A stretch of 64,000 bases of DNA from an uncultured Gammaproteobacteria bacterium (lineage in GTDB: Bacteria; Patescibacteriota; Microgenomatia; CAZTEW01), in the NCBI GenBank assembly GCA_964612215.1, contig CAZTEW010000001.1, forward strand, positions 12,432 through 76,431. Reading direction: 5' to 3'. Positions 2,775-46,102 of the stretch are shown one piece after another (positions within the stretch are counted from its first letter, which is position 1; the number at the start of each line of letters is the position of its first letter). Under the pieces are notes generated by a model. The model saw only the letters and a list, made by a program, of their open reading frames with translations, did not search any database and was not told the DNA's origin. Both the position numbers and the translations under genes were made by a program.

Positions 2775-3669
2775 AGATAATGAGGATAGTCATTAATCCC
2801 CAGCCCATGACGCTTAAAGAAAGAGGAATGTCACTGGTCAGGAGCTTCTCCGGCCTTTCGCCGGCCTGTTTCTCATAAATCAGCTGGGCGTAACGCATAA
2901 TGCCGAAAATGACAAAAGGAATCGTGGCGGCCATCAACCACTTTCGGCCCAGAGCCTTAGGGAAGTTAATCACTAAAAATTGAGTTAAGGGCTCGCTGAA
3001 TTCAGGCGGTTCAGTGAAAAAGGTAAAAAGAGCATAAGAGACCAAAGCGGCGTTGGCAAAAGTTGAAGTGTAAAAATCAAGCAGTTGGCGGCGGTAGGCT
3101 AACAGCGCCGGTCTGGTTTTGGCGCCTTCCAAAACCAGTTCTGATCGCCGCTTGCCGGAGGCAATAAAAAGAGCCAGAAAAATAGCGGTGAGCATAAGCC
3201 AAATGGGAACATGAAAGCCGGTCAAGGCCTCGCCGACAAAAATGCGGATGATAAAAGAACTGGCAATGATTAAGATATCAACGACGGCAAATTTTTTTAA
3301 GAAAGAAGAATAAAGAAGGTGCAGGCTGATAAAAAGAAGGCCGAGGAGAAAAACGCTGATGCCTAAAAGCAAGCTGATAATCAAGCCGCTGATCGCCAGA
3401 AAAACAGCTAGCTGAATAGCAGTCTGAGGCTTTATTTTGCCGCTCGCCAGCGGCCGGTGTTTTTTTTGAGGATGGCGTTGGTCATAAGGCAGATCGATTA
3501 AGTCATTAAAAAGATAAGAAGCAGAAGAAAGTAGGCAAAAGACGCCGAACCCGCAAAGACAGCGGAGGAAAATTTCCGGGTTAAGCAGCTGGCCGGTAAA
3601 AATAATGGCGGTAAAAACCAGCGCGTTCTTAATCCACTGACCCGGTCTCAGAGAAGTGATTATAAACAT
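2764..3669 (-). CDS. UbiA-family prenyltransferase, decaprenyl-phosphate phosphoribosyltransferase-like
   Basis: 301 aa polytopic protein. N-terminal RPGQWIKNALVF and NDLIDLPYDQRHP (NDxxDxxxD) motifs, typical of the DPPR synthase branch of UbiA. Confidence 0.6.
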   Translation of the reverse strand: MFIITSLRPGQWIKNALVFTAIIFTGQLLNPEIFLRCLCGFGVFCLLSSASYLFNDLIDLPYDQRHPQKKHRPLASGKIKPQTAIQLAVFLAISGLIISLLLGISVFLLGLLFISLHLLYSSFLKKFAVVDILIIASSFIIRIFVGEALTGFHVPIWLMLTAIFLALFIASGKRRSELVLEGAKTRPALLAYRRQLLDFYTSTFANAALVSYALFTFFTEPPEFSEPLTQFLVINFPKALGRKWLMAATIPFVIFGIMRYAQLIYEKQAGERPEKLLTSDIPLSLSVMGWGLMTILIIYVV

Positions 3670-3734
3670 TATAAAGATTATAAGAGCTTGCTCGCTTCGC
3701 TGTGCTTCCTCTTGTAATTCTCCTTACAGTCAAA

Positions 3735-4958
3735 TTATAACTCGCTTGCGACCTTTTTGCCAATTTCAATCGCATAATTAACGCCTCGATCCCAAGGATA
3801 AATTAAGGACTGGTTAGCCAGAGAGACATTTTTCAGCGGGGTTTTCATCCCTGGCATGATTTTTGAATAATTAATGGGTATGACCGGTTGAGCATAAAGA
3901 TTAGCGAACAGCGAACAGCGAACAGCGAACAGCCTGGGGTTGATTTTTTTCAAATAGGGGAGAAACTCTTTGAGAACTTCATCTTTTTTCATCTTAAAGT
4001 AGCGGTGGTTTTGCGGATAATAGCCGCCAACATAAAGAAGACGGCAGTGATGATAGTACTGCCGATTGATGAAGTTGGTGTGTTCGACTACGGCCACAAA
4101 AGGAAAACCAGGTTCGTTAATATTGAGCCAGTAAGTATTGTCAGTTAAGAACTTTTCTCTAAGAGTTAAAACTAAAACTACGGCGCCGACAAATTTTAAA
4201 GATTGGAGACGGCGACGGTAATCAACTGGCAAATGAGGGGCGATTTTTAGAAATTCCGGCGTCGGCACCGTGACGATGATAGCATCAAAACCCTTTAACT
4301 CACCGAGTTTTTTTATGGTTGTACTTGTCAAAATTTGGCCACCGCTGGCTTTGATTTCCTCAGCCAGGCGGTCAATTAAAACCTGAAAACCGCCTTTTAA
4401 GTAGCCTAATTGTGAACTTCTTTTTTTGATTCTGGCCCAAAACCAAGACATGGCGATTTCATCGGCAAAAGAGCCGAACTTGCTTTGCAGCAGCGGCTGC
4501 CAAAGGGTTTGATAGACGGCTTGGCCGTAATATTTGCGCAGCCATTTTTCCGCCGTGACTTCTTCAAAAGACAGCGCTTTGCTGGCTTTAAGCCAAGCCG
4601 TCGCTAAACCCGCGCGGATTTTTTCCGGCCAGGAAAGGTGTGGAAAAGTCATTAGCGCTAATGGCGAATCAAAGGCAGAAATCCGGTTACTTCGGAAAAT
4701 AGAAGTTTTCGGCTGGTAATAGTGAAGCTGGTTTTGAAGATTAAGTTCGCTGATTAAATTTTGGACATGATGATCAGAAGTGAAAAGGTGGTGATAGAAA
4801 CGTTCTAATGACCATTGCCAGTTTTTTTCTCGAAACCCAGCCGCCAGGCCGCCTAAATAGCCTTCTTTTTCAAAAACAGAAACAGCCTGTCCCTTTTTGG
4901 CCAATTCGTAAGCTGCGGTTAGGCCGGTAATGCCAGCGCCAATAACAGCAATCTTCAT
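3735..4958 (-). CDS. FAD/NAD(P)-binding oxidoreductase (amine-oxidase/protoporphyrinogen-oxidase/UDP-galactopyranose-mutase-like fold)
   Basis: 407 aa. N-terminal Rossmann motif MKIAVIGAGITGLTAAYELAKKGQAVSVFEKEGYLGG. HHLFTSD resembles the UGM PHIFHT signature. Exact family unresolved. Confidence 0.55.
   Translation of the reverse strand: MKIAVIGAGITGLTAAYELAKKGQAVSVFEKEGYLGGLAAGFREKNWQWSLERFYHHLFTSDHHVQNLISELNLQNQLHYYQPKTSIFRSNRISAFDSPLALMTFPHLSWPEKIRAGLATAWLKASKALSFEEVTAEKWLRKYYGQAVYQTLWQPLLQSKFGSFADEIAMSWFWARIKKRSSQLGYLKGGFQVLIDRLAEEIKASGGQILTSTTIKKLGELKGFDAIIVTVPTPEFLKIAPHLPVDYRRRLQSLKFVGAVVLVLTLREKFLTDNTYWLNINEPGFPFVAVVEHTNFINRQYYHHCRLLYVGGYYPQNHRYFKMKKDEVLKEFLPYLKKINPRLFAVRCSLFANLYAQPVIPINYSKIMPGMKTPLKNVSLANQSLIYPWDRGVNYAIEIGKKVASEL
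3903..3930. repeat. Heptanucleotide tandem repeat (agcgaac)x4 inside oxidoreductase gene
   Basis: Direct read at 3903-3930. Encodes AVRCSLFANLY on the minus strand. Confidence 0.85.
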
Positions 4959-4970
4959 AATTAATAATTA

Positions 4971-5447
4971 TCACAGAGCAAAGAGCAATCCGAGGATGAC
5001 GAGTGCGCCGCCAGCCAGAGCGGTGAGCCAGGTGGGTAGAGTGATGCCAGCTTCAGGCAGAGGAATCGGCGTCGGTGTTGGTAAGGCGTCTGGAGGAGCA
5101 GGCGGCGGCGTTGGCGTTGAAGTTGGTCCTGGGGTGGGCGTGGAAGTTGGTCCGGGCGTGCCGGTAGGCGTCGGTGTGCCGGTTGGCGTCGGTGTGCCGG
5201 TTGGCGTCGGTGTGGAGACGCCAGCGACATTAAAGCTTAAAGTGCAGGCGGCAACCGGATCCCTTTCGGCGGGTGGTAGTTGGGTGGGTGTGGCGGTCGG
5301 TTCCAGGGCCGGCGCCGGCTGGGGCGCGGTCGGAGCGACCGGCTGCTGGCGGAGCTGGTAGAGCCGCAAGGCAGTTATCACCGCAATCACCGCCAAGATG
5401 ACGGTCGCGCCTAAAATAAAAATTGTCGTCCGGTTTTTCTTTGGCAT
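4971..5447 (-). CDS. Small Pro/Thr-rich surface protein with N-terminal signal-anchor and C-terminal LPEAG-hydrophobic tail
   Basis: 158 aa. N-terminal TM. TPTPTGTPTPTG tandem repeats (tandem at the DNA level, 5100-5220). C-terminus LPEAGITLPTWLTALAGGALVILGLLFAL. Confidence 0.5.
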   Translation of the reverse strand: MPKKNRTTIFILGATVILAVIAVITALRLYQLRQQPVAPTAPQPAPALEPTATPTQLPPAERDPVAACTLSFNVAGVSTPTPTGTPTPTGTPTPTGTPGPTSTPTPGPTSTPTPPPAPPDALPTPTPIPLPEAGITLPTWLTALAGGALVILGLLFAL

Positions 5448-5451
5448 ATTT

Positions 5452-6843
5452 TTATCTCCAGCCTAGCGAGGGATTTTTTACCATCGCCTCGACCGTATAA
5501 CTACCTGAACTGGGAACTTCATACTGGACATAGAACTTGCCTGATTTTTTGCCGGTCGGTATTTGCCAGCTGCCGGCGTTAAACCGGAAGCGAGCGTCAG
5601 TAATGCCCTGAGGTTCTTCGCAACCGCCAGCGACCGCAAAATAAATTGTCTCGCCGACGCTGATCGTATTGAGATTGGTAATCGGCTGCCAATCCTCATT
5701 AAAAGCCGCCAGGCTGGTACAGCTTAAACTGTATTCTTGACCAGCTTCGCACCCCTCAACACAACCATGATCGCTGTTATGGCAGATGTCAAATCTAATG
5801 TCAGACTGCCAGGCACAATATTGAGGCGGACCATTGGCACTATTAGTATTGCCTCTGGTCCAGACTTCGTCTGGAGTGAGAGTCACTGCTTCGGAAAAAT
5901 CGCCACCGCTACAGAAGCAACTATCATTGTTTTGATGATCACACCAACGAGAAAACCAAACAGCCGTGCCGCTAATTGGCTGGTCAGTATTATTGATGAT
6001 CTTGACGCCGCCTTTATTTGCCTGACATTCTAAAGTGCCGCTGCCGACGCAAGTGCCGCCTTGACATTTGCCGGAAGCGCAATCTGAATCATAAACACAA
6101 CCAGCGTGACTGCCGCAGCTTTTACCACTAGCGCAATTGCCATTATCGACACTGCATGATTCCCAGTGAGCACAATCATTAGGGCCAGAGCAACAACCAG
6201 GTTTGCCAGGTTCTGGTTCAGGTTTACAGACGCTGCAGTTCGGATCATCGGTTTTCATGCATTGCTGGCCTTCGGCACAATCCTTGGTGCCGCTGCAGCA
6301 TTGCGTTCCCGGCGGGCTGGTGGGGCCAGGTGTTAAATCACCAGAACAGGGAGAGTTAGCTGGGTCAGGATTGACTGCTCCGGCGGAACAAGTGTACTGA
6401 TGGGTATCAGCATCACACCAAGTATCTGGCAAATCAATATAATTACAAGCTTGGTCACAGCCCCAGCGGCCGTCGGCATCGCAAGTGCTCCAGCCAGGTT
6501 CATGACCATTACATTTATGTTGGGGATTGTCAGGGTAATTACAGATATTATCGGCCATTTTGCGGACTTCCTGGCGCTGTTTGACTAGGGTCAAAGCCAC
6601 CGGCAGGGAAATGAGAATCAAAGCGATACCGGCAATTGCGGCGGCGACCCGGCCTTTTTTCTTGTTTGCCGCCGGCTTAATTTCCGGAGTTTCTTGGATG
6701 TTCCCCGGCTCTGGCTGTTTGTCAGTTGGCGGTGGCGGTGGCGGTGGCGGTGGTAGCTCAGCTGGCGGCACTGGCTGGCTGGCGGGAGGATTAATACCGG
6801 AAAGAGTTGGCGTTGCTGGCGGATTGGTCGGTTGGTCAGGCAT
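5452..6843 (-). CDS. Cys-rich ectodomain protein with polyproline N-terminal tail and single TM (type II topology)
   Basis: 463 aa. N-terminal about 60 aa Pro-rich including PPPPPPPPP. Then TM, then LVKQRQEVRKMA motif. Extracellular region has more than 50 Cys in CxxGxC-like spacing. 1-nt overlap with the upstream gene. Confidence 0.5.
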   Translation of the reverse strand: MPDQPTNPPATPTLSGINPPASQPVPPAELPPPPPPPPPTDKQPEPGNIQETPEIKPAANKKKGRVAAAIAGIALILISLPVALTLVKQRQEVRKMADNICNYPDNPQHKCNGHEPGWSTCDADGRWGCDQACNYIDLPDTWCDADTHQYTCSAGAVNPDPANSPCSGDLTPGPTSPPGTQCCSGTKDCAEGQQCMKTDDPNCSVCKPEPEPGKPGCCSGPNDCAHWESCSVDNGNCASGKSCGSHAGCVYDSDCASGKCQGGTCVGSGTLECQANKGGVKIINNTDQPISGTAVWFSRWCDHQNNDSCFCSGGDFSEAVTLTPDEVWTRGNTNSANGPPQYCAWQSDIRFDICHNSDHGCVEGCEAGQEYSLSCTSLAAFNEDWQPITNLNTISVGETIYFAVAGGCEEPQGITDARFRFNAGSWQIPTGKKSGKFYVQYEVPSSGSYTVEAMVKNPSLGWR

Positions 6844-8126
6844 TAAGGACTAAATTTAAAGTTTAAAAACAAGCCGCTAAAAATAAGGCTCAATCCCAGT
6901 ATGACAAAGAGAAGAGTGGGTGTCAAGTAGCCTGACTGAGGCACCCCGCTTTCAGTTGACGGCAAAGAAGTTCTTGGAACGCTGGTTGGCGTGGGGCTGG
7001 GGGTTGAAGTTGGCGAAACCTGGCCTGAAGGCGTGGCTGTAAAAGAAGGCAGGTCAGCCTCGCCGGCGGCAAGAATGGTAAATTCGCGGGAAACCGCGGC
7101 GCCGTCAGCGGTAGTAATCGTGATCGTGTGAACACCAGGTTCAAGATTAGCCGGCGGTACCCAGTGCCACTGGCCGTTTTCGTCAATCAAGACTTCGACT
7201 TCGAAGCTGGCTGAAGATTCCAGAATCAGGGTGACGGTTTCACCCTGAAGGCCGGTGCCCTGAAACTCAGGCCTCAAAGTATTTATCCCTTCACCTTCTT
7301 CAGGGTTAAGAATGGTTAACGGACTGATCCCGGGCCGATTGAGATTCAAAGGGTTAAGATTAAAGCCAGAGTTCCGGAATCCGGACGGCTGAGTCGGTTG
7401 AACCAGCGCCGGCCGGCGAAAATCATAAGTCTGGCCGAGAGTGATTTCTGGCACCGGCGAATCGTTTTGGCTGGTGACCAAAACCGTCGCTTCTCCCCAG
7501 CGGCCGGCCTGGACAAAAATTTCCTCGCTAGCGCTAGTACGGTCATAGTCAAAATAGCGAGTCAGGTCAGCGGTTCTGGCCATGCTTAAAGGAATTGTCC
7601 AGTGGCCGTCGGCCTGACTCAAGCCGGAAAGCGGACTGGCGCCAGCCAGGGTTAAATAAACAATCGCTTCCTGGCTAGGAGTGCCATCGGGTTGGAAAAC
7701 CTGGCCGTAGGCGGCGTCAGCCGCCGCTGCGGTCTGAAGATAAGGGCCGGTGGCGACTTCGTAAGGCCGGCCCTGCTGGTCATAGAGTTTCTCACTAGAG
7801 CCAATTTTTAAATAATATTTTGTTTCCGGCTGAAGATTTTCAATTTTTAAATAATGAAGCAAGTTAGTCTGGGTTTGAGTCTGGGTTTGGGTTAGAGAAA
7901 GAGAAGTTCCGTATTTGACAAGACCGACCGTTTCCTGATCAGTGATCCAGGAGACAGTAAAGCTGTTGGCATCAATATTAGTCACTTTAATTTGTTGAGG
8001 GATTGTTTGGGGAGCGGCGCCGAGAAAGCCAGTCCCGCCTTTTCTCAGCAAGAAAAGGCTAGCGGTCACGGCTGTCAGAATTAAAAAAAGGGCCAGGAGA
8101 GTGGGAATTGATTTTTTAGCTTTCAT
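6843..8126 (-). CDS. Surface protein with FN3-like and bacterial Ig-like domains and C-terminal hydrophobic anchor
   Basis: 427 aa. N-terminal signal-anchor. FN3-like FTVSWITDQETVGLVKYGTS..YYLKIGS. Ig-like TVTLILESS..HTITITTADGAAV. PT-rich linker. C-terminus VPQSGYLTPTLLFVILGLSLIF. Confidence 0.5.
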   Translation of the reverse strand: MKAKKSIPTLLALFLILTAVTASLFLLRKGGTGFLGAAPQTIPQQIKVTNIDANSFTVSWITDQETVGLVKYGTSLSLTQTQTQTQTNLLHYLKIENLQPETKYYLKIGSSEKLYDQQGRPYEVATGPYLQTAAAADAAYGQVFQPDGTPSQEAIVYLTLAGASPLSGLSQADGHWTIPLSMARTADLTRYFDYDRTSASEEIFVQAGRWGEATVLVTSQNDSPVPEITLGQTYDFRRPALVQPTQPSGFRNSGFNLNPLNLNRPGISPLTILNPEEGEGINTLRPEFQGTGLQGETVTLILESSASFEVEVLIDENGQWHWVPPANLEPGVHTITITTADGAAVSREFTILAAGEADLPSFTATPSGQVSPTSTPSPTPTSVPRTSLPSTESGVPQSGYLTPTLLFVILGLSLIFSGLFLNFKFSP

Positions 8127-8425
8127 TCTTTTCCAGGCTGGCCGCTAGGATTGGCACTAGAGGTTGTTTCGTTAGCTTCTGCGACCGGCCCTAATTCCTC
8201 CAGCCGGCCTAATTCTTCTTCTGAAATCCGAAGACGTTCTTTAAGCTGGTTGATTACCTCTTGATTTAATTTAGGATCCAAGGGCTGCATTTGTTGATCG
8301 AGAATTTCCGGTAGAGTATATCGAGTTAAAGCTCGGTAAACATCAAAGCCTATCCAGACCGCCACGGTCAGTAAAGTGGAAACAGCTAAGCTGATTAAAT
8401 CGCGGTTGATTTTTTTCTTTTTCAT
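8123..8425 (-). CDS. Small membrane protein (pilus-operon associated, function unknown)
   Basis: 100 aa. MKKKK plus one TM plus charged C-terminal region. 4-nt overlaps on both sides suggest translational coupling. Confidence 0.4.
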   Translation of the reverse strand: MKKKKINRDLISLAVSTLLTVAVWIGFDVYRALTRYTLPEILDQQMQPLDPKLNQEVINQLKERLRISEEELGRLEELGPVAEANETTSSANPSGQPGKE

Positions 8426-9039
8426 GGCAAAGAATAGATTTGAGCCTGAATTGTTAACATAATTGATGTTTCTTCTTCAAGGCCTGACTTTTCTTCAGCA
8501 AAGTCAAAGTTTTTTAAAATTACCAGTCTTTCCAGTTTTTCTAAATCAGTTAAGAATTTTTTTAAATCTTCATAATTGCCAGCGGCGCCAAAATCCACTG
8601 CCAGCGTCAATAGTTCGCTTTTTGGCTCAACAGGCAAGAGATCAGCCTTTTCTAGTTTAAAGCTGATGAGCTGAACGTTGTTTTTATAGGCCAAATATTC
8701 CAGTTGTTTGATGAGCTGAGAAAACTCGCTTTTTTTCGGCAAGGCGGCTTCAATATAGACCAGGTCTGGCTGGACGCGCAAATATTCCTTTTGCGCCAAG
8801 GAAAGAGAATTGATTTTTTGTTCCAGCTTTTGGCTAGCCTCACCCTTATCACGGATTTCCTTGATTAAGCCGCTGATGGTTCTTAAACTCGGCCTAATCG
8901 CGAAAAAGCCGCAAAAAGCGACCGTTAAAAGCGAAACTGCTAAAAAAGTAACATCTTTCACCGCCTGATCTTGATAAAGACCACCCAGGCGATGATAGTA
9001 GCGACGGTATTGGTGGTAAGGCTGTTGGCGATTATTCAT
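8422..9039 (-). CDS. pilO: Type IV pilus assembly protein PilO-like
   Basis: 205 aa. Single N-proximal TM, coiled-coil segment, C-terminal ferredoxin-like region typical of PilO. Immediately follows the PilN-like gene. Confidence 0.5.
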   Translation of the reverse strand: MNNRQQPYHQYRRYYHRLGGLYQDQAVKDVTFLAVSLLTVAFCGFFAIRPSLRTISGLIKEIRDKGEASQKLEQKINSLSLAQKEYLRVQPDLVYIEAALPKKSEFSQLIKQLEYLAYKNNVQLISFKLEKADLLPVEPKSELLTLAVDFGAAGNYEDLKKFLTDLEKLERLVILKNFDFAEEKSGLEEETSIMLTIQAQIYSLP

Positions 9040-9607
9040 TTTTGATTCTGTTTAAAGAATCAGCGGCCGGTGTTGCTTCACTGGCGCTGACAGTAAACTC
9101 AATCAGGCCTGATTCTTTTTTCCTGACTTCTTCAAGATTAATTTTTTCTAACTGGAGCTTTTCTTTTAAGCCGGTGAGAAAATGATGAAAGCCGGCATCA
9201 GAAATGGAGGTGGCGCTAATTTGCCAGCCGCCTTTTTCGATTTTTAACTCTGTTAAAACAACGTCCAGGGGAATGATGACCGACAATTGCTGCAGCCGGC
9301 TGGCGGCCGGAATTTGTTCACCGCTTAAGCGGTTGATTTCATTAAGTCTTTGCTGCAGCCGGCGGAAATTGGTTTCTAAGTCTTCTAACGAGCCGACAAT
9401 CGCCTGTTGTTGTTTAATGGTTTCGCTCAAGTCCATCAATTCCCGGTCAAGCTTAAACCGGGAAAGAAAACAAACAATCACGATGAGTTCAGTAGTGATG
9501 ACAATCCAGCGGCCGACAGTCAGGGTCCAATGAAGCAACTTGCCTAAGGAAGTTTGTTCAAAAGTTTTGATAAAAAGCAAATTGATTTCTTTTTTCCAGA
9601 CAGCCAT
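9032..9607 (-). CDS. pilN: Type IV pilus assembly protein PilN-like
   Basis: 191 aa. N-terminus KKEINLLF matches the PilN INLLP motif. One TM, then periplasmic coiled coil. Confidence 0.55.
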   Translation of the reverse strand: MAVWKKEINLLFIKTFEQTSLGKLLHWTLTVGRWIVITTELIVIVCFLSRFKLDRELMDLSETIKQQQAIVGSLEDLETNFRRLQQRLNEINRLSGEQIPAASRLQQLSVIIPLDVVLTELKIEKGGWQISATSISDAGFHHFLTGLKEKLQLEKINLEEVRKKESGLIEFTVSASEATPAADSLNRIKNE

Positions 9608-9640
9608 ATATTTTCAGTATAGAAATTTTCCCGGGATTTG

Positions 9641-9868
9641 TCAAAGGGCAGCAAGTTGGCTTTTGCAGCGAGCCGCTTTGTTCTGATGGAGGATGCCTTT
9701 TTTCACCGCCCGGTCAAGCACCGCATAAGCCAATGCCAGGCTTTTTTTGTTTTTCTTAGCCTTAGCTTTTTTAATCGCCATTTTGACCTTGTTTTTAATC
9801 CGGAGATTAACTAATCTACGGCGCTGGTCTTTCCGCAGGGCTTTTTTCGCTGATTGAGTGATAGGCAT
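9641..9868 (-). CDS. rpsT: 30S ribosomal protein bS20
   Basis: 75 aa. MPITQSAKKALRKDQRRRLVNLRIKNKVK..KKGILHQNKAARCKSQLA is canonical S20. Confidence 0.85.
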   Translation of the reverse strand: MPITQSAKKALRKDQRRRLVNLRIKNKVKMAIKKAKAKKNKKSLALAYAVLDRAVKKGILHQNKAARCKSQLAAL

Positions 9869-9888
9869 AGATAAATTCTATCATCTTC

Positions 9889-9917
9889 TTGTTTAATTCA
9901 CAACCAGAGGCTATACT
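9889..9917 (+). promoter_or_regulatory. Sigma70-like promoter for murJ (TTGTTT-17-TATACT)
   Basis: ttgttt at 9889-9894, 17-nt spacer, tatact at 9912-9917, 11 nt before the murJ ATG. Confidence 0.35.
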
Positions 9918-9928
9918 AAAAATACAAA

Positions 9929-11647
9929 ATGGTTGCTAATTTCTTAGGTCGGCGGCAGACGAACATTTCTTCCGCTGCCGCCATTATCAGTTTAATGATT
10001 GCTTTTTCCCGAATTCTGGGCTTGATGCGCAATCGGGTTTTGGCCCATTTTTTCTCTTCCACCGAGCTGTCTCTTTATTTTGCCGCCTTTCGTTTGCCAG
10101 GGGCTGTTTTCGACATTTTAGTTTTCGGCGTCATTTCCGCCGCTTTTATTCCTACCTTTACTGCCTATCTGGCTAAAGATGAAGAAAAACAGGCCTGGCA
10201 AATTGCCAATGGAGTTTTAATTCTGGCGTTGCTGGTATTTTTAGTCCTCTCCGGCTTGATTTTTTTATTGGCGGCGCCTCTTTACCGCCGGATTATTCCT
10301 GGTTTTAGCCAGGAGCAAATTGACCAAGTGGTTTTCCTGGCCAGAATCTTAATTGTTTCCCAGGGATTTTTCCTGCTGTCTTACTTTTTGACCGGCATTT
10401 TGGAATCATGGCAGCGCTTTTTAGTGCCGGCGATTGCGCCGATTTTCTATAACCTGGGAATTATCGGCGGCACGGCTTTTTTGGCGCCGAAATTGGGATT
10501 AACAGGGTCGGTTTTAGGCGTCGTGGCCGGCGCTTTTTTTCATTTTATTATTCAATTGCCTCTAGCTTTCAACCTTGGCTTCCGGCCGCGGTTAATTTTT
10601 AATTTTTCCCAGCCCGGTTTGAAAAAGGTGGGTCGATTAGCCTGGCCGCGGATAATTGAGCTTTCTCTTTTAGAGCTGGCGAAAACCATTGAGCTTTTTT
10701 TTGCTTCTCTAGTTTCAGTCGGCGCCTATACTTGGTTGACTTTTGCCAATTCGCTGCAGCTCTTGCCGGTGGATCTTTTCGGCACCAGCTTGGCCAAAGC
10801 CACCCTACCGACCTTTTCTTCTTTAGCGGCCCGCGAGGAAAATGACCAGTTTAAAAAAGTTTTTCTTTCATCCTGGCAGCAAATTCTCTTTTTAACTTTG
10901 CCGGCGTCGGTTTTTCTGGTGGTTTTGCGGGTGCCGATCGTCCGGCTGGTTTTTGGTGCCGCCCGCTTTACCTGGGAATCAACTTTGGAGACCGGGTACA
11001 CTCTTTCGGTTTTTTGCCTGGCGATTTTTTCTCAGGCTTTAGTTTTACTGCTTAACCGCGCCTTTTATGCTTTTCAAGAAACAAAAACAGCCGTGAAAGT
11101 TTCGGTTTTTTCTACTTTAATCAATATTATTCTCAGCGGACTCTTGATCTTAATTTTAAAATTTCCCCTTTGGGGGCTGGCTTTGTCTTTTACCCTGGCT
11201 TCTTTATTGCAGTTTTTAATTCTTTTTCGGCTGCTGGCAAACAAACTGGGCGGCTTTAGCAAAGAAGAAACCCTAACTCCTTTTTTGAAGACCGCCTTAG
11301 CAGCTGTTGTTGCCGGCGGTCTGATGTTTTTTCTTTTGAAAATTTTTGACCGGTCGGTTTGGGATAAACGGCTGTCTTTTTTAAATTTTTTCGGCTTGAG
11401 ACTTTCCACCAGCCTGGAGAAATTCGTTCTCGATACCCGCTACACGACTAATCTCATATTATTAACGGCTTTAGTGGCCCTAGCAGGCGCCGGGGCTTAT
11501 TTAGGCTTAGCTTGGGTTTTGAAAATCAAGGCCTTAATGGTCTTTTTAAAAACCGATTACCGGCTGGCCGGAAGAAATTTCTTTAAAGAGCCAGACCGAG
11601 AAATAATAACAGCAACCCCGAAAGAAGGCTCAGAACCGTTGGTGTGA
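9929..11647 (+). CDS. murJ: Lipid II flippase MurJ (MviN)
   Basis: 572 aa, 14 TM helices. N-terminus SRILGLMRNRVLAHFFSSTELSLYFAAFRLPGAVFDI matches the MurJ signature. Confidence 0.85.
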   Translation: MVANFLGRRQTNISSAAAIISLMIAFSRILGLMRNRVLAHFFSSTELSLYFAAFRLPGAVFDILVFGVISAAFIPTFTAYLAKDEEKQAWQIANGVLILALLVFLVLSGLIFLLAAPLYRRIIPGFSQEQIDQVVFLARILIVSQGFFLLSYFLTGILESWQRFLVPAIAPIFYNLGIIGGTAFLAPKLGLTGSVLGVVAGAFFHFIIQLPLAFNLGFRPRLIFNFSQPGLKKVGRLAWPRIIELSLLELAKTIELFFASLVSVGAYTWLTFANSLQLLPVDLFGTSLAKATLPTFSSLAAREENDQFKKVFLSSWQQILFLTLPASVFLVVLRVPIVRLVFGAARFTWESTLETGYTLSVFCLAIFSQALVLLLNRAFYAFQETKTAVKVSVFSTLINIILSGLLILILKFPLWGLALSFTLASLLQFLILFRLLANKLGGFSKEETLTPFLKTALAAVVAGGLMFFLLKIFDRSVWDKRLSFLNFFGLRLSTSLEKFVLDTRYTTNLILLTALVALAGAGAYLGLAWVLKIKALMVFLKTDYRLAGRNFFKEPDREIITATPKEGSEPLV

Positions 11648-12686
11648 GAAAGCCGGTTGCCGGCAAGTCTTCAGCGTCGGCCACCGTGAAAGAGACCGAG
11701 TCAGTGGTGGTTTGGCCGCTGCTGTCAGTGGCAGTGACTGTGGCCGTATGGCTGCCGGTTTCCAATTCGCTGGGCGGCGTCCAAGACCAGTTGCCGGCCG
11801 CATCAGCATAGACCATGCCGGTGATCGGCGTTGATTGCACGGTGATGGTGATTTTCGCTCCGGGAGCCGCGGTGCCAGATAAAGTTGGCGGATTACTGCT
11901 GCTGGAAATACTGCTTAAGCTGACCGGATTACTGGAGGTTCCGCCACCAGAAGCGGTAGTCGGTGTTGCCGTCGGCGAGGCGCGAGTTGGCGTCGGCGTG
12001 TTAGTGGGTTCGCCAGCTGATTGAGTGGGTGTGGGAGTATTCGTTACTCCGGCTGATTCTGTCGGCGTGGCCGTGGCTTCTGGCGGTATGGTTGTTGGTG
12101 TCGCCGTGGCTGTTGCCCCACCGCCAATCGTGTAAGAGCCATTGCTCGTCGGCGTCAAAAGAATATCGACATTGTCAATCTTGCTTTGAATTTTGCTTTG
12201 TTGAGGATCGAAACTTAAAACCACCGGATTAACCGCCGGCACTTCATTAGCCACGAGATTAAAAGAAGCGAGTAAAGTATCGCTGGCAGCGGTAAAGCCT
12301 TCAGTGGTAATATTAGCGCAGGCGATATCAATTTCAACCTGACTGCCTGTTGGAGTAATGGTTTTCACCGGACACATCCAGTTGCCGCTCGTCAGAAAAG
12401 AAGGATTAATTTGTAGACTAGAAGCCGTTAGGTTGCCGCTCAACGGATAAGTAATCCGCACCGCAATCGAAGAAATGGGAATGCTGACTGGATTAAAATA
12501 GACGCTGACTGGAAATGATTGGCCGACTTCATAATTACCTGAAGCTGGCGAAAGAGAAACTAGGGCTGTGCCGCTTGGCGTCGAAGCTCTTTTTCTGATT
12601 TCCTGACGCTGTTTGACTAAATAAACCCCCAAAGGAATGGCGACAATGACCAAAATAATAAAGAGTAAAATGGCAATTTTTTTCAT
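11583..12686 (-). CDS. Surface protein: N-anchor, cohesin-like domain, PT linker, Ig-like domain, C-terminal LPATG-hydrophobic signal
   Basis: 367 aa. N-terminus MKKIAILLFIILVIVAIPLGVYLVKQRQEIRKRA. Cohesin-like beta-sandwich region identical to that of 13294..14712. C-terminus LPATGFLTPTVLSLLSGLLLLFLGLAL. Confidence 0.5.
   Translation of the reverse strand: MKKIAILLFIILVIVAIPLGVYLVKQRQEIRKRASTPSGTALVSLSPASGNYEVGQSFPVSVYFNPVSIPISSIAVRITYPLSGNLTASSLQINPSFLTSGNWMCPVKTITPTGSQVEIDIACANITTEGFTAASDTLLASFNLVANEVPAVNPVVLSFDPQQSKIQSKIDNVDILLTPTSNGSYTIGGGATATATPTTIPPEATATPTESAGVTNTPTPTQSAGEPTNTPTPTRASPTATPTTASGGGTSSNPVSLSSISSSSNPPTLSGTAAPGAKITITVQSTPITGMVYADAAGNWSWTPPSELETGSHTATVTATDSSGQTTTDSVSFTVADAEDLPATGFLTPTVLSLLSGLLLLFLGLAL
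12205..12605. repeat. Copy A of perfect 401-bp direct repeat (partner 14219..14619)
   Basis: Compared both stretches base by eye and they are identical. Boundaries set by flanking mismatches. Encodes the shared RKRASTPSGT..VLSFDP cohesin-like domain. Confidence 0.8.
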
Positions 12687-12689
12687 CGT

Positions 12690-13307
12690 TTATTTAATTT
12701 GGTAAATGCCTGTTAGAAAATTAAGCTTTACTTTTTGGTTATCTTTAGTTGTTAATTTAGTCTGTTGAGGATCAAAAGCTAGGATTAAATTTTCAATCGC
12801 CGCTTCGGCCGTCAATTCAATTGTGCCTAAAATATCTTCTCCGTTTAGTTGAAAACCAGTCAGGGTTGGGTTAACAGCCGCTAATTCAAGATTAACAGTT
12901 TTATTTTGCCAGTCAACCCAAACTTTATTGATTGGGTAGATCCAGCCCTGTTGCTGCCAGTCAGAATTAGGTTGAATTTTAGTGCTTTGGGGTTGTAAAG
13001 GCGGGATTTTATCAAAAGGATAACTTAAGTGAAGAGCAATGCCAGAAAGAGAAAGATTTTGACCGGTTAGTCTGATCTCCAAAGATAGGTTTTGATCAAC
13101 CACTAATTGACTGTTTTGAGGAACAAGAAAGAGACTGGCTTGAGTTTCTGTCGTCATTTGCTTTTCCGGCAAACTAGATTCCGTGACTGCTTGGTGGAAA
13201 GCTGGATTTTTTGTTCTCTGCAGATTGAGAAAAACTAGCCAGCTGCCTATCACTAATAAAATGATTAGACCAAATAAAAACAACTTTTTCATTTTATTGA
13301 TCTCCAA
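12690..13307 (-). CDS. Membrane-anchored single-domain protein (cohesin-like)
   Basis: 205 aa. N-terminal TM then LNLQRTKNP. Beta-rich domain ending LAFDPQQTKL, similar to the FDPQQSKI region of the neighbours. Confidence 0.4.
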   Translation of the reverse strand: MEINKMKKLFLFGLIILLVIGSWLVFLNLQRTKNPAFHQAVTESSLPEKQMTTETQASLFLVPQNSQLVVDQNLSLEIRLTGQNLSLSGIALHLSYPFDKIPPLQPQSTKIQPNSDWQQQGWIYPINKVWVDWQNKTVNLELAAVNPTLTGFQLNGEDILGTIELTAEAAIENLILAFDPQQTKLTTKDNQKVKLNFLTGIYQIK

Positions 13308-14712
13308 GTACAGTCAAGGCAGTATAGTTTAATAAAACAGCAGAGATATCATCAATTTCGATGAAACTATTAGCATTGACATCAAATTGCTGATTACTAG
13401 CGCTAACCGGCACTGATAGAGCCGTGTAAACGCCAATAACGGCGCCTACGTCATCAATGTCAAGCTGATTATCATTATTAAAGTCGCCGCTCTTAACTTC
13501 AATTGAATTCCAAGAAGCAGAGGCCTGATTATTGCTGGCTGTGAGAGTGATGTTGCCAAGTTTTTTTTGTAAATGACCGTTATCTTTAACAAGAACTTCA
13601 ACATTAACGCCACCAGCAGGGAAAGAGAGATTGGCCAGAGAAATAGGATTAACAGGTGCAAAAGAACTATGAGCGCCGCTTTGACAAATAACACTGGGAT
13701 AAACTTGACCAGACGGTCCTTTAAGAGTTACCCGGATAGATTTAGAAATTCCTTGTTGATTGATTCCTTGCATTCTGAAACCAAAAGAGAGCGTGGGAGC
13801 GTTAGTCGTGGCTTCAGCAATATTTGACAAATTAGAAATGTTGCCCGCAGTATCAATAGATTTAATGGCAAAATAGTATTTTGTTCCGGGATTAAGTCCA
13901 GAAACAGTAAATGTTTCAGCTTTTCCAGGGTTGCCTGGGATTGGTAATCCACTCACTGGTGTAGCGCTAGACCAATTAGTGTTAGTAATCACTGAAGTAG
14001 AATAGCGCAGGTCGTAAAGGTTGGCTTTTCCAGCTGGTCCTGCGTCAGCGGGAGCGGTCCAAGACAAACTTAAGGAGTTAAAGGAGACGTTAGTTATATT
14101 CAGATTAGTGATGGCGGCTGGCGGTGTCAAGTCTAGGTTAATTGTATATGAAGCAGCGGCTGGCGGTGTTAAGAGAATGTCTTGATTTTGAGCTTTGCTC
14201 ATGATTTTACTGGCGGCTGGATCAAAACTTAAAACCACCGGATTAACCGCCGGCACTTCATTAGCCACGAGATTAAAAGAAGCGAGTAAAGTATCGCTGG
14301 CAGCGGTAAAGCCTTCAGTGGTAATATTAGCGCAGGCGATATCAATTTCAACCTGACTGCCTGTTGGAGTAATGGTTTTCACCGGACACATCCAGTTGCC
14401 GCTCGTCAGAAAAGAAGGATTAATTTGTAGACTAGAAGCCGTTAGGTTGCCGCTCAACGGATAAGTAATCCGCACCGCAATCGAAGAAATGGGAATGCTG
14501 ACTGGATTAAAATAGACGCTGACTGGAAATGATTGGCCGACTTCATAATTACCTGAAGCTGGCGAAAGAGAAACTAGGGCTGTGCCGCTTGGCGTCGAAG
14601 CTCTTTTTCTGATTTCCTGCTTTTCTTGAGTAAGTTGAGAAGCAACAACCAAACCAATGATTAAAATTAAAAGAAAGAAAAAACCCAAAAGATATTTTTT
14701 CATTTTATTCAT
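13294..14712 (-). CDS. Surface protein: N-anchor, cohesin-like domain, FN3 domain, C-terminal type I dockerin
   Basis: 472 aa. N-terminus LTQEKQEIRKRASTPSG. FN3 LSLSWTAPAD..YYFAIKSIDTAGN. Dockerin repeats GDFNNDNQLDIDDVGAVIGVY and QFDVNANSFIEIDDISAVLLNY with Ca-binding D/N at positions 1, 3, 5, 9, 12. Confidence 0.55.
   Translation of the reverse strand: MNKMKKYLLGFFFLLILIIGLVVASQLTQEKQEIRKRASTPSGTALVSLSPASGNYEVGQSFPVSVYFNPVSIPISSIAVRITYPLSGNLTASSLQINPSFLTSGNWMCPVKTITPTGSQVEIDIACANITTEGFTAASDTLLASFNLVANEVPAVNPVVLSFDPAASKIMSKAQNQDILLTPPAAASYTINLDLTPPAAITNLNITNVSFNSLSLSWTAPADAGPAGKANLYDLRYSTSVITNTNWSSATPVSGLPIPGNPGKAETFTVSGLNPGTKYYFAIKSIDTAGNISNLSNIAEATTNAPTLSFGFRMQGINQQGISKSIRVTLKGPSGQVYPSVICQSGAHSSFAPVNPISLANLSFPAGGVNVEVLVKDNGHLQKKLGNITLTASNNQASASWNSIEVKSGDFNNDNQLDIDDVGAVIGVYTALSVPVSASNQQFDVNANSFIEIDDISAVLLNYTALTVLGDQ
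14219..14619. repeat. Copy B of perfect 401-bp direct repeat
   Basis: Identical to 12205..12605, offset 2014 bp. Confidence 0.8.
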
Positions 14713-15982
14713 CGCCAGGTATCACTAAAGCAGTATAATTTAATAAAATGCCAGAAACATCAGTGATATCAATCATATTATCACCATTAATATCAAATTG
14801 TCGAGTGCTGCCGCTCACCGGGACCGATAGAGCGGTGTAAACGCCAATGATGGCGCCAACATCGTCAATTGCAAGCTCGTTGTTGTTATTAAAATCACCG
14901 GCTTTGAGGATTTGTTCGGGCGCGTTGAGGAGAGCGGCTTGGCCGGCGGCGAGCTCGACTTGGCCGAGATTTTTTTGCAAATGAGCCCAGCCTTTGACGA
15001 AAACAGTATAAGCGCCGGGGTCAAGGTTATGGAGAGTGCCGACATAGACGCCGCTGCCGTCGTGACCGAACTCAAAATTATCAAAAATCTGATCGTTGCC
15101 ACTATTTGGTCGAAGAGTGACTTTAGCTGTTTTTACTCCTTTATCGCCATCAATGCCCTGAAATTTGATTTTAATCGTTAAATTGCCTTTTTGCGGTTCC
15201 TGGGTAGGCGTTGGGCTGGGAATTGGCGTGTTGGTCGGTGTCGGCGTGTTGGTCGGTACTGGCGTGGCGGTTGGGTTAGGCGTTGCTGTCGGCGTTGGTG
15301 TCGTTGTGGCGGTAGGCGTAGGTGTGTTCGTTGGTTCGCCGGCCGGAACAGCCTCAATGACAATCGCATCAGCGGTTCCCAAAATGTCTTCACCTGCCTG
15401 ACTAACAACATTGGTATCCGGCGTACTGCCTTGAATAACTGTTTCCTGGCAACTGGCATCAGCCGTACTGCGGAAGCAGAAACTAATCTTGCTGCTGCCT
15501 TCAGCCAGAGCTTTGAAAACAATAGTTGCTAAGGGATTGACGATGGTTTCAACAGGATCGGTAGCGCTATCAGCCATCCAATTAAAACCTAAAGCGCCAA
15601 AAGAAAGCATGCCGGTTTGATTGGCTTGAGCGATGACTGTGTCTTTATCAAAACTGCCATCTGCAAGAACCGGAGCAAAGGTTTTTAAGTTTGTGGTAAG
15701 GTTAGGCATAATATCCATTACTTGCAGTAAATTTTTATCAAAAGTTAATATGATATCAGCGGCAACGACACTTTGACCGCCAGGGTTAAGAATCAGATTA
15801 ACATCAAAATTGTTGCCAACTACTGGTTGAGTTTCGCCAGCTAAAACCAGTGCGGCGCTGTAGTTAACGGCTTTTTTTCTAATTTCTTGATGCTGCTGGA
15901 CAAGAATAGAAACAGTCACGAGAGCGGTTAAAAGCAGCAAAAAAGAAAAAATCGCCCACCAAGTTTTTCTGGTTATTTTCAT
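14705..15982 (-). CDS. Surface protein: N-anchor, cohesin-like domain, long PT linker, C-terminal type I dockerin
   Basis: 425 aa. N-terminus LVQQHQEIRKKA. PTNTPTPTATTTPTPTATP linker. Dockerin repeats GDFNNNNELAIDDVGAIIGVY and QFDINGDNMIDITDVSGILLNY. Confidence 0.55.
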   Translation of the reverse strand: MKITRKTWWAIFSFLLLLTALVTVSILVQQHQEIRKKAVNYSAALVLAGETQPVVGNNFDVNLILNPGGQSVVAADIILTFDKNLLQVMDIMPNLTTNLKTFAPVLADGSFDKDTVIAQANQTGMLSFGALGFNWMADSATDPVETIVNPLATIVFKALAEGSSKISFCFRSTADASCQETVIQGSTPDTNVVSQAGEDILGTADAIVIEAVPAGEPTNTPTPTATTTPTPTATPNPTATPVPTNTPTPTNTPIPSPTPTQEPQKGNLTIKIKFQGIDGDKGVKTAKVTLRPNSGNDQIFDNFEFGHDGSGVYVGTLHNLDPGAYTVFVKGWAHLQKNLGQVELAAGQAALLNAPEQILKAGDFNNNNELAIDDVGAIIGVYTALSVPVSGSTRQFDINGDNMIDITDVSGILLNYTALVIPGDE

Positions 15983-44820: not shown

Positions 44821-44827
44821 TCTTTTT

Positions 44828-46102
44828 ATGAACCAATTTACCGCCAGTTTGTGGGGAGATGAAGCCTTTGCTGCGGTTTTAGCCCAAAAGCCATATTGGC
44901 AAATTGTTCTCAGGGCTGCCAGAGACACTTCGCCGCCTCTTTTTTATCTTTCCCTTCATACCTGGATGAAGTTTTTTGGCAGCAGTGAGCTGGCCATCAG
45001 AACCCACTCCTTTCTCTATTTCCTCTTGTTGATTTATGTGGTTTATCTTTTTGGGAAACATCTTTTCAATAAGAAAATTGGCATGATCGCGGCAATGTTA
45101 ACCTTTCTCAACCCTTTTTTATTTCAATATGGTTTTGAAGGCCGAATGTATTCCATTCTAGCCTTTTATTCTACTTTATCGATGTATTTTTTTATCACCC
45201 AAAAGAAATGGCCCTATATTTTAGCGAGCACGGCTGCCTTGTATTCTCATCATTTTGCTATTTTTATTATTTTGAGCCAATTTATTTTTCAGCTACCAAA
45301 ATTAAAGAAAAATTTCATAGAAACGATTAAACCATTTTTCTGGATAGGATTTTTCTACCTTCCTTGGCTTTATCCTCTTTATTATCAGACTTCATTAGTC
45401 ACCAGTGGTTTTTGGTTGGCTAAACCTGATTTAGAAAGCGTTTATCATCTTTTTAGAAGTTTTTTGGCGGGCGGCTTTGAGCATCAGCTTAAGAACAAGA
45501 TTTTACTGGTTAGCGGTTTATTGCTTTTAGGCCGGCGCTGGCAGAAAGAGGATTTCTTGCTTTTGGGCTGGCTGGCTTTACCAATTAGCCTGACCTTCCT
45601 TTTTTCTCAACTTAAACAATCCATTTTTTTTGACCGCTACTTGCTTTTTGTCATCCCGTCCCTAATTTTGCTTATGACATCCCGACTAAGAAAAATAGCC
45701 TATCCGTTGTTAGTCTTGTTGATTTTCTGGCTGGCAGTGACTAATTTTTCCTATTTTACCCAGCCGACAAAAAGGCCGTTTCGAGAATTGGCTCAATTTG
45801 TTCACCAAACAGCTAGGCCTGGCGACGCATTAATTAACTGGAGTGGTCAGGCTCATCATTTTTTCGAATCTAAATATTATGGTCTATCAGCACCGCTTTA
45901 TTATCCCCAAGGCGAACCGCCATTTTATATTGGGACTGCTTTAATGGAAGCAGAAGATATTATTAAAGAGTTGCCAGTCAAAGGAAGAACTGGAGTGGTT
46001 ACCAGCGACTCAACCGAGTCAGTAACCTTGCCTGGCTACCAACAAGAACAGGTTCATAATTTTGGCGGTTTGAAATTAATATGGTTTATCAAAAGATTTT
46101 GA
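44828..46102 (+). CDS. GT-C fold membrane glycosyltransferase (ArnT/PMT-like)
   Basis: 424 aa polytopic. N-terminal WGDEAF..DTSPPLFY loop typical of GT39/GT83. Confidence 0.55.
   Translation: MNQFTASLWGDEAFAAVLAQKPYWQIVLRAARDTSPPLFYLSLHTWMKFFGSSELAIRTHSFLYFLLLIYVVYLFGKHLFNKKIGMIAAMLTFLNPFLFQYGFEGRMYSILAFYSTLSMYFFITQKKWPYILASTAALYSHHFAIFIILSQFIFQLPKLKKNFIETIKPFFWIGFFYLPWLYPLYYQTSLVTSGFWLAKPDLESVYHLFRSFLAGGFEHQLKNKILLVSGLLLLGRRWQKEDFLLLGWLALPISLTFLFSQLKQSIFFDRYLLFVIPSLILLMTSRLRKIAYPLLVLLIFWLAVTNFSYFTQPTKRPFRELAQFVHQTARPGDALINWSGQAHHFFESKYYGLSAPLYYPQGEPPFYIGTALMEAEDIIKELPVKGRTGVVTSDSTESVTLPGYQQEQVHNFGGLKLIWFIKRF

Follow-up and report, generated by a model that had tools for sequence, protein, structure and literature searches.

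Seven co-oriented open reading frames (ORFs) on the minus strand of the window, the 64-kb stretch of contig CAZTEW010000001.1 analysed here, each begin with a single hydrophobic helix (4971-15982), and in four of them, P7, P9, P10 and P2, the box Q-x-Q-E-[IV]-R-K-x-A follows directly after this only N-terminal transmembrane (TM) helix. Our results support the box as a class-specific N-terminal tag of Microgenomates-type bacteria of the Candidate Phyla Radiation (CPR), neither a chance resemblance nor a feature of this locus. The same unit of ~35 residues, a helix followed by QRQEIRK[K/E]A, is carried by hundreds of otherwise unrelated Microgenomates surface proteins, and it probably anchors or sorts the proteins that build the attachment surface. 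As to how it does so, we lean, at somewhat less than an even chance and from what the sequences alone suggest, towards an uncleaved anchor with the N-terminus inside and the C-terminus outside (N-in/C-out) that would double as an interaction module, with a candidate tie to the co-operonic PilN/PilO platform. Members of the CPR/Patescibacteria are believed to live in attachment to other microbes; hardly any have been cultured, and very little is known of their surface biology.

Box-bearing proteins of the window

The original prediction had described a near-identical motif after the single N-terminal helix of four proteins, and all four strings are present in those ORFs. The N-terminal module of P7 (ORF 11583-12686; module 12579..12686, minus strand; N-terminal sequence LVKQRQEIRKRA) consists of MKK, a 21-residue helix with an AIP kink and the box KQRQEIRKRA (12585-12614). 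The remainder of P7 (11583..12578) comprises a cohesin-fold domain, a Pro/Thr-rich (PT) linker, a Big_13 Ig domain and a C-terminal LPATG followed by a TM helix, with no basic tail. In P9 (ORF 13294-14712; module 14599..14712, minus strand; LTQEKQEIRKRA) the box reads QEKQEIRKRA (14599-14628) and precedes a cohesin-like domain, an FN3 domain and a dockerin-like C-terminus (13294..14598). P10 (ORF 14705-15982; module 15869..15982, minus strand; LVQQHQEIRKKA) has the box QQHQEIRKKA (15869-15898), followed by a cohesin-like domain, a PT linker and a dockerin-like C-terminus (14705..15868); the C-termini of both P9 and P10 are dockerin-like calcium-loop repeats. P2 (ORF 5452-6843, minus strand; LVKQRQEVRKMA) carries its TM helix and box at 6553..6648 (KQRQEVRKMA, 6553-6582) behind a Pro-rich cytoplasmic N-terminal extension of 65 residues (6649..6843) and continues into a Cys-rich extracytoplasmic part (5452..6552). 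Because the ATG start of P2 shares nucleotides with the P3 stop codon (TAATG), this extension is unlikely to be a start-codon artefact.

A regex search of the six-frame translation of the whole 64 kb returned no strict motif beyond these four sites. A profile hidden Markov model (HMM) built from unrelated database sequences scores P7, P2, P10 and P9 at 54.7, 47.7, 43.4 and 38.7 bits, respectively, and no further ORF of the window was reported down to a cut-off of E<=1. The claim that all seven proteins share the motif therefore stands for four of them; of the other three, P3 has a box of its own, P1 has a WKLYQLRKAPVAPT-like box and P8 has none.

P7 and P9 are identical at the DNA level from the QEIRKRA codons onward and at the protein level over ~190 residues, from the box through the cohesin domain. 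Their helices differ, as do their C-terminal halves (Ig and LPATG versus FN3 and dockerin). The two genes are recent duplicates or gene-conversion partners, and the window thus holds three independent copies of the box. The paired segments (12087-12686 versus 14113-14712, minus strand) point to a recent event inside the island, either gene conversion or a shuffling of domains. The box copies vary at synonymous codons (CAG/CAA, ATC/ATT/GTC, AGA/CGC), which argues that selection acts on the protein; the same variation rules out conservation at the RNA or DNA level, or a recombination cassette, as the source of the box.

Distribution of the module

One genome from each of 185,579 species was searched with a degenerate DNA pattern for QxQEIRK[KR]A. 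The 66 matches are within a few-fold of a rough chance estimate that takes codon probabilities as uniform; 11 of them are preceded in frame by a TM helix, although in one of these, cut by a contig end, only the end of the helix is seen. None of the remaining 55 matches has an upstream helix, and many contain stop codons. Eight of the TM-preceded copies lie in records titled Gottesmanbacteria, Woesebacteria, Blackburnbacteria, Microgenomates or "Patescibacteria group". The other three come from metagenome-assembled genomes titled "uncultured Gammaproteobacteria" (L004, L006 and L019). L004 (OZ246397.1, a 615-kb chromosome) and L006 (CAZLDC010000053.1) have the gene order of the window island, with murJ/pilN/pilO, or hrcA-grpE-dnaK-dnaJ beside the tagged gene, and housekeeping proteins that are 43-69% identical; L019 (CAYIUF010000003.1) has only tagged proteins and the adjacent flavin adenine dinucleotide (FAD) oxidoreductase in common with the window. 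The "Gammaproteobacteria" titles of these three look like wrong labels or placeholders.

At the protein level, a profile of 34 positions built from 14 N-termini was run with HMMER against 1.84 billion representatives of 50% identity clusters. It matches 316 protein clusters at E<=1e-3, and the box stands at the expected place in 143 of the 148 new representative sequences returned. Contigs from Joint Genome Institute (JGI) metagenomes supplied 79 further loci, and ~160 tagged ORFs (at 25 bits or more), often in tandem, are present in ~635 kb of related loci. The expectation that the motif would be found outside this locus was thus borne out, both by the 316 clusters and by the 11 TM-preceded copies in species genomes of Microgenomates/Patescibacteria type. 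A profile of four N-termini returned a single match (P0001) from a word-indexed set of 5.8 billion proteins and missed the window's own proteins, this set being unsuitable for queries of ~40 residues. With at least 316 clusters, the tag lets the surface proteome of one large CPR class be listed from metagenomes.

Scans against Pfam and NCBIfam, with full-length proteins and with isolated N-termini at E<=10, gave no model that matches the module; the YSIRK, prepilin N_methyl and SipW-cognate models were among those available. The SAG1386/EF1546 family of NCBIfam scored 17 bits against a cut-off of 80 and was treated as noise. Full-text literature searches for the box strings, or for CPR secretome, sortase and cohesin, gave nothing relevant. 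The box is thus absent from Pfam, NCBIfam and the searchable literature, in agreement with the earlier remark that it was not recognisable as a described signal.

Anatomy of the tag

The consensus and the flank charges were taken from 143 representatives aligned on the box. The conserved unit of ~35 residues comprises the whole TM helix plus the box. Position -26 is mostly basic (Lys 58%, Arg 12%; Gln in 14%), and a hydrophobic stretch of 21-22 residues spans positions -24 to -4. Within the helix are a Gly at -19 (46%), a small residue at -12 (Ser/Ala/Gly/Thr, 96%), Ile or Leu at -11, Pro at -10 (75%), a second small residue at -8 (Ala/Thr/Gly/Ser, 94%), Leu at -5 (95%) and Val at -4 (81%). 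The S-xxx-A/Pro pattern of the helix is conserved, and a small-xxx-small face is typical of helix-helix packing. The box reads [KQR]-Q(89%)-R(86%)-Q-E(95%)-I(85%)-R-K(92%)-[E 43%/K 37%]-A(99%)-[A 58%/V/S], and beyond A-[A/V/S] the relative entropy drops to ~0.6 bits. The consensus module contains no Cys. In the AlphaFold2 (AF2) model of P7, a helix covers residues 2-25 and the box is coil, with a predicted local distance difference test (pLDDT) score of 63-74.

Two elements of the original prediction change in the light of this consensus. It had taken the box for a dedicated sorting or processing signal; a class-specific tag that occurs in 316 clusters and is distinct from AXA-type signal peptides is indeed observed, but the unit is larger than the box and includes the entire TM helix. 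It had also proposed cleavage at "RKRA then STP", which does not generalise, because STP is present only in the P7/P9 duplicates and conservation elsewhere stops at A-[A/V/S].

The charge of the box was likewise overstated. Instead of +4 to +5, the four 12-residue strings carry a net charge of +2 to +4: +4 in P7, +2 in P9, +2 plus one His in P10 and +3 in P2. Across the representatives the inside flank of the helix has 3.3 Lys+Arg (net +3.0) and the outside flank 4.0 Lys+Arg (net +2.5). With flanks so nearly balanced, and with Glu as frequent as Lys at position +5, it is the sequence that is conserved and not the charge, and the idea of a wrong-side charge that contradicts the positive-inside rule is not upheld. 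Long Sec-translocated domains do not strictly obey that rule (von Heijne). In a crude Kyte-Doolittle control on polytopic proteins of the window, MraY (6 versus 17 Lys+Arg) and YidC (1 versus 19) both follow it; the control is weak, since its TM calling is too rough for MurJ and the GT-C proteins. Given balanced flanks and a long Sec-translocated passenger, the tag is unusual, not paradoxical, and it offers a well-conserved case of a strongly basic segment that is routinely carried across the membrane next to an anchor.

More than 40 residues precede the helix in 39 of the 143 representatives and more than 80 in 17, the extensions reaching ~130 residues. In the P2-like family (window 6649-6843, minus strand; L075 9277-9960; L092 2315-3448; ~50 others) the extension is of low complexity, with a conserved M-[DN]-N-L-P-x-D at the extreme N-terminus and a conserved [PT]-I-E-[IV]-G-S-L ~20-30 residues before the helix. 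The M-[DN]-N-L-P-x-D motif loosely recalls the PilM-binding INLLP motif of PilN.

The tag and signal peptidase I

Textbook signal peptides are present in the related loci, for example ...SPISVFA↓DD in L034_5807 and ...KLAFA↓QN in L050_6619 (arrows mark cleavage sites), and locus L149 has SSVHA↓ID, TSAYA↓LP, PQAQA↓QS, PTAA↓QQ, VASA↓ED and QVFA↓QP. These examples were inspected individually, the table of a heuristic signal-peptide caller having been discarded as too permissive (181 positives). The hydrophobic core of the canonical L149 signal peptides measures ~13-18 residues by eye, versus 21-22 in the tag. For signal peptidase I (SPase I) the hydrophobic (h) region is usually ~7-15 residues, up to ~18 in monoderms, and the tag exceeds this range. 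The residues at -3 and -1 are also at odds with this enzyme, which calls for small uncharged residues at both positions and cuts 3-8 residues beyond the h-region: Lys occupies -3 of the invariant Ala (+6) in 92% of the representatives, and the next Ala after it has Glu or Lys at -3. The Lys makes the box incompatible with the -3/-1 rule seen elsewhere in the lineage, and as judged from its residues the box is not a standard signal-peptidase site. Standard predictors would probably call the tag a plain TM segment, since it has a TM-length helix and no AXA, and would miss its common identity.

Neither a Tat twin-arginine motif (S/T-R-R-x-F-L-K) ahead of the helix nor a lipobox (L-x-x-C) is present in the tag consensus. 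Furin/kexin-like dibasic cleavage is ruled out by the Glu at +5 in 43% of the representatives. Rhomboid-type cleavage was set aside: the P1 Ala and P4 Ile of the tag fit the Strisovsky rhomboid motif, but the substrates of rhomboids are N-out helices, and the tag has no hydrophobic residue at P2'.

Passenger domains and C-terminal signals

The AF2 model of P7 residues 1-200 (pLDDT 89.5) contains a beta-sandwich whose best Foldseek match is 6kgf_C (E 2.1e-10, TM-score 0.75). Almost all of the top 48 matches are cohesins, with one CLIPPER adhesin domain at rank 41, and the model matches the nine-stranded jelly-roll fold of solved cohesin modules (PF00963). The Cohesin score in Pfam is sub-threshold in the window proteins and significant in 14 tagged relatives. 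FN3 and Big_13 are matched by Pfam in the surface proteins of the window, and the dockerin assignment is supported by sequence and by Pfam matches in homologues. On these grounds the downstream domains are, as had been proposed, extracytoplasmic in type.

Among 132 tagged representatives, Pfam matches were obtained to Cohesin (14), Dockerin_1 (12), Big_13 (9), Big_6 (5) and fn3 (2); single members match beta-helix/NosD, Laminin_G_3, GH5, TSP_1 and other families, and most match nothing. In a set of 136 tagged proteins, Cys exceeds 3% in 48 and a dockerin-like C-terminus is found in 24, while 37 end in [LIV]P-x-[AST]-G followed by a helix without a basic tail. In the window, an LPXTG-like pentapeptide followed by a hydrophobic segment terminates P7 (LPATG, 11586-11666), P1 (LPEAG, 4974-5060) and P3 (VPQSG, 6846-6945), all on the minus strand. 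The positively charged tail of sortase substrates is missing from these proteins, which end directly after the helix (...LFLGLAL, ...SLVFIL). The consensus of these C-termini in the window and in the 37 tagged database proteins, LPEAGFxLPTFGAIIGGxLLI, has a conserved Gly-rich helix without a basic tail, which is atypical for sortase substrates, and the C-terminal signals may point to a variant sortase or to a different C-terminal system.

Housekeeping exported proteins of the window (SBP, VanW, DUF4012, PEGA/SH3, M23 peptidase) have N-terminal helices without the box, which argues that the tag marks structural or adhesive surface proteins and not exported proteins generally. In L149 (JGI Ga0452208_007911, 2048-14300), a tandem array is headed by one tagged cohesin/dockerin protein, after which come five or six dockerin-bearing beta-helix (pectate-lyase-like), CBM6/35, CBM9 and SBBP proteins; these dockerin-bearing neighbours have canonical signal peptides. 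Such an array, on a contig of CPR type, resembles the docking system of a cellulosome.

Genomic neighbourhood

The genes pilN-pilO-X-P3-P2-P1 (4971-9607, minus strand) overlap successively by 8, 3, 4 and 1 nt, with a 4-nt gap before the last of the six, and form a translationally coupled operon. Its first gene encodes a PilN-like bitopic protein (9032..9607, minus strand; PF05137, E 6e-8) with EINLL at its N-terminus, and the second a PilO-like bitopic protein (8422..9039, minus strand; PF04350, E 3e-15). X (8123..8425, minus strand) is a single-TM protein of 100 residues, always located between pilO and P3; it has no family match above cut-off in Pfam or NCBIfam, and a homologue search gave only four close relatives. 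No pilM, pilB, pilC or pilD gene was found among the annotated ORFs of the window, and no pilin gene is present near the operon. Beyond P1 are an FAD amine-oxidase-like gene, a UbiA prenyltransferase and a PMT-type (PMT_2) GT-C protein (1248-4958, minus strand), and across the convergent murJ from the operon lie P7-P10, followed by hrcA-grpE-dnaK-dnaJ.

To count neighbours, the 762 ORFs of the window and of 93 related loci were clustered. PilO and X (40 loci each) are found most often, followed by the FAD enzyme (37), PilN (34), MurJ (32) and S20 (28), and the order murJ/rpsT-pilN-pilO-X-P3-tagged proteins-FAD enzyme recurs in genomes down to 57% MurJ identity. The suggested link to pilus-associated machinery is thus borne out as far as context goes, with pilN-pilO in the same operon here and at 34-40 other loci; because the related loci were chosen by similarity of the tag, which favours two operon-resident families, the association may be partly synteny. 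The recurring pilN-pilO-X order also suggests that PilN and PilO form the basis of an envelope assembly distinct from the core pilus genes.

Of the partners that had been put forward for a co-occurrence test (a protease, a sortase or a type IV pilus component), PilN/PilO was seen in the related loci, whereas motif-level checks brought up no sortase or peptidase. Sortase (TLxTC) and S26 box E signatures, sought by regex and not by HMM annotation, are absent from every plausible protein among the 762 ORFs (~635 kb). The looser SMxPT pattern matched only ORFs that are not peptidase-like, such as P3-type surface proteins, and a motif-level check found none of the 45 largest neighbour families to be peptidase-like.

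Two further features of the neighbourhood were observed. The genes murJ (plus strand) and P7 (minus strand) converge with 3' ends that overlap by 65 nt (11583-11647), as in the syntenic locus L067 (11085-11149) and its relatives L068 and L069. UbiA is seen in three loci and PMT in ten, and three more PMT_2/GT2 genes are present at 43336-47532. The UbiA/PMT genes and the linkers of P1, P7 and P10, which are rich in Thr and Pro, suggest glycosylation of the surface proteins from a polyprenyl-phosphate sugar donor.

A proposed uncleaved anchor weighed against processing

In our tentatively preferred reading, the module would insert via Sec and the signal recognition particle (SRP) as a type II signal-anchor and would escape removal by SPase I, so that a particular group of surface proteins, structural or scaffolding in role, would stay held in the membrane. 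The conserved helix face and the polar box beside the membrane would then serve as a handle by which all of these proteins associate laterally with one membrane partner, for which the bitopic PilN/PilO/X platform of the same operon is the best candidate; the basic residues would belong to a sequence-specific recognition surface and would not act as a topogenic charge signal. Dockerin cargo, exported by cleavable signal peptides, would dock on the membrane-tethered cohesin proteins. Several observations point in this direction. A TM-length helix without an SPase I site, in a lineage that uses classical sites elsewhere, favours an uncleaved anchor, and the conserved cytoplasmic tail motifs of one subfamily make sense only for a stable bitopic protein. 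The conserved small-xxx-small/Pro face of the helix favours an anchor that doubles as a handle, as do the bitopic operon partners and the division of L149 into a tagged cohesin protein and dockerin proteins with signal peptides.

Other observations weigh against the uncleaved anchor. The 37 of 136 tagged proteins that end in a sortase-type [LIV]P-x-[AST]-G and a TM helix would be tethered at both ends, and known sortase-type proteins of monoderms lose their N-terminal signal. Conservation halts abruptly at the invariant Ala and the small residue after it, in the manner of a processing site. Some paralogues in L132 have TM-LKLSHQEKPVLA↓Q, in which Q-E is equally distant from a canonical VLA↓ site. 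In the AF2 model the helix does not run on through the box, which is a low-confidence coil. The selection of loci by tag similarity favours operon-resident families, and the link to PilN/PilO could be conserved synteny without physical interaction; in Gottesmanbacteria-like loci the cohesin-type tagged proteins adjoin hrcA/murJ, with pilN/pilO several kb away.

Some of these points are expected if the tag is instead a dedicated processing signal: a specialised peptidase unlike SPase I would recognise it in the membrane, cleave the chain at the invariant Ala or beside it (K-[E/K]-A↓A/S/V) and free the mature surface protein, much as prepilin or SipW-cognate signals work, except that the cut would fall on the helix's outer side. 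We consider this explanation possible, though on the unlikely side. It would account for the abrupt end of conservation at A-[A/V/S] and for the 27% of tagged proteins with a C-terminal LPxxG-type signal, which would normally be expected to lose their N-terminal helix; the cohesin domain starts ~7 residues after the Ala, versus 5 after the canonical signal peptide of the paralogue L141_8323, and the conserved helix residues could be an intramembrane recognition determinant. Yet neither the signature search nor the family check described above found a candidate enzyme, Pro lies two positions after the Ala in 12%, which disfavours classical serine signal peptidases, and cleavage would waste the long motif-bearing cytoplasmic extensions or uncouple them from the outer domain. 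Those extensions, up to ~130 residues long, are also atypical for cleavable signal peptides, and so count against an ordinary Sec signal peptide with a long, lineage-specific c-region, cut by SPase I at variable downstream sites, in which the box would be a spatial or kinetic targeting element like YSIRK-G/S. Many copies do have sites compatible with the (-3,-1) rule 8-14 residues past the box (P7 and P9 with GTA↓L, copies of Gottesmanbacteria type with APA↓T), the L132 paralogues have long polar c-regions that end in VLA↓, and the tag resembles YSIRK in marking structural surface proteins, a quarter of them with LPxxG anchors. No site is conserved in position, however, the entropy being ~0.6 bits two residues after the Ala, and a c-region of 18-22 residues after a 21-residue helix would be needed, which is outside the usual geometry of SPase I; we regard this explanation as improbable.

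Two explanations appear less likely still. The tagged proteins might be non-canonical pilin-like subunits whose helix the type IV pilus machinery associated with PilN/PilO would pull out of the membrane and build into a fibre or add to its surface, as their common operon with pilN/pilO could suggest. Type IVa pilins carry G14/P22, which the Gly and Pro of the tag helix recall. A precedent for pilus proteins without a PilD signal is given by PilX1/PilX2 of Saccharibacteria (PMC11623550). The tag, however, has no G↓FTLIE site, no Glu5 and no N_methyl/TIGR02532 match; a canonical prepilin (KGFTLIELLVV) is encoded at one related metagenome locus, L094; AF2 predicts a 24-residue helix and a linker, not a lollipop with an ~50-residue alpha1; and the annotated ORFs of the window lack pilB, pilC, pilM and pilD. 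We judge pilin-like subunits very unlikely. Lowest of all we place a tag without function of its own, spread by recent duplication, gene conversion or 5' cassette shuffling among paralogues. The P7/P9 pair, with identical DNA from the box codons and ~190 identical residues, and the frequent tandem arrays of tagged genes would fit such an origin, but the copies differ at synonymous codons, and the tag persists across 316 clusters with nothing common downstream and across records that bear the titles Gottesman-, Woese- and Blackburnbacteria, so that shuffling alone is hardly credible.

Beyond the uncleaved anchor itself, a bolder and rather doubtful proposal is that the helix and QRQEIRK[K/E]A are the address label of an undescribed Microgenomates protein-sorting pathway, whose cognate partner would recognise the label in the membrane and build a cohesin-dockerin surface layer, or an organelle for attachment, about the base of the pilus. 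Either a new processing enzyme with its gene elsewhere in the genome or PilN/PilO/X, acting outside classical pilus assembly, could be this partner, and the tag provides a handle for finding such a sorting or assembly partner.

Other surface proteins and variant boxes

The three remaining surface proteins of the window depart from the consensus in different ways. P8 (12690..13307, minus strand) is cohesin-like; its N-terminal TM helix is followed by no recognisable box (LNLQRTKNP), and it has no HMM match. P3 (6843..8126, minus strand), with FN3 and Big_13 domains and the C-terminal VPQSG plus TM helix, carries the family-specific variant box LLRKGGTGFLGAAP. Orthologues of P3 keep the operon position, have a conserved box of their own, of the type LIKQGxxLFLKAxP, and give weak HMM matches. 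P1 (4971..5447, minus strand), a small PT-rich protein that ends in LPEAG plus a TM helix, has the variant box LRLYQLRQQPVAPTAP, and the few relatives of P1 that were seen have a WKLYQLRKAPVAPT-like box.

Beside the tagged cohesin proteins, a second family has its own post-helix box, LLLLAAYQTATIISRA[AT]G (L006 1-1146; L027 6925-8000; L036 5200-6516; L040 1045-2484). A common theme runs through the variant boxes: after a helix come [KY]Q, some six residues, [KR]-A and then a residue that breaks the helix, which points to a wider superfamily of juxtamembrane boxes.

Comparison with known export signals

The tag is reminiscent of the YSIRK-G/S signal of staphylococcal and streptococcal surface proteins (TIGR01168) in being a conserved motif within an N-terminal export signal that marks a subset of surface proteins, many with LPXTG-type C-termini, other exported proteins having plain signal peptides. 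YSIRK ([YF]SIRKxxxGxxS), however, lies in the n/h-region before the core and its signal is cleaved at AXA, whereas the box follows a TM-length helix and has Lys at -3; isolated N-termini have no YSIRK-G/S match in NCBIfam even at E<=10. The SipW-cognate signals of TasA/CalY (TIGR04088) are likewise class-specific and N-terminal, with a motif after the hydrophobic core, and belong to matrix or surface proteins. That class is defined by an adjacent SipW-type peptidase, whereas by regex signature none is found near the tagged genes, and no tagged N-terminus matches TIGR04088.

Like the alpha1-N segment of type IV prepilins, the module combines a conserved hydrophobic helix with Gly/Pro kinks, divergent C-terminal domains and a pilN/pilO context, but it lacks the leader-Gly site, Glu5 and the lollipop fold, and its polar box is on the outer side of the helix. 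No tagged protein has a PF07963/TIGR02532 match to class III prepilins, and GFTLIE is found in one of the 762 ORFs of the related loci, the L094 prepilin, which has no box.

The module also resembles the type II signal-anchors of PilN, PilO, sortase A and penicillin-binding proteins, which lack an SPase I site and in which a TM helix of ~21 residues has basic residues on its cytoplasmic flank and a large C-terminal domain on the outer side of the membrane. The tag has the single N-terminal helix of at least 20 residues and the basic cytoplasmic flank (net +3.0) of this group and is encoded beside PilN/PilO. Ordinary signal-anchors are not conserved between unrelated proteins, whereas the module is conserved at nearly every position.

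The proteins that carry the tag also recall the anchoring scaffoldins of cellulosomes, which are held at the surface by S-layer homology (SLH) domains or by sortase, with cohesin proteins at the surface and dockerin proteins with normal signal peptides nearby. Here, in contrast, an N-terminal membrane helix, sometimes together with LPxxG, would serve as the anchor, and the lineage is a non-cellulolytic CPR lineage; the tag suggests a way in which a cellulosome-like docking system may be tethered to CPR cells. If the proposed sorting pathway exists, these bacteria would have, at the N-terminus and on the outer leaflet, a counterpart to the sortase, exosortase and rhombosortase systems.

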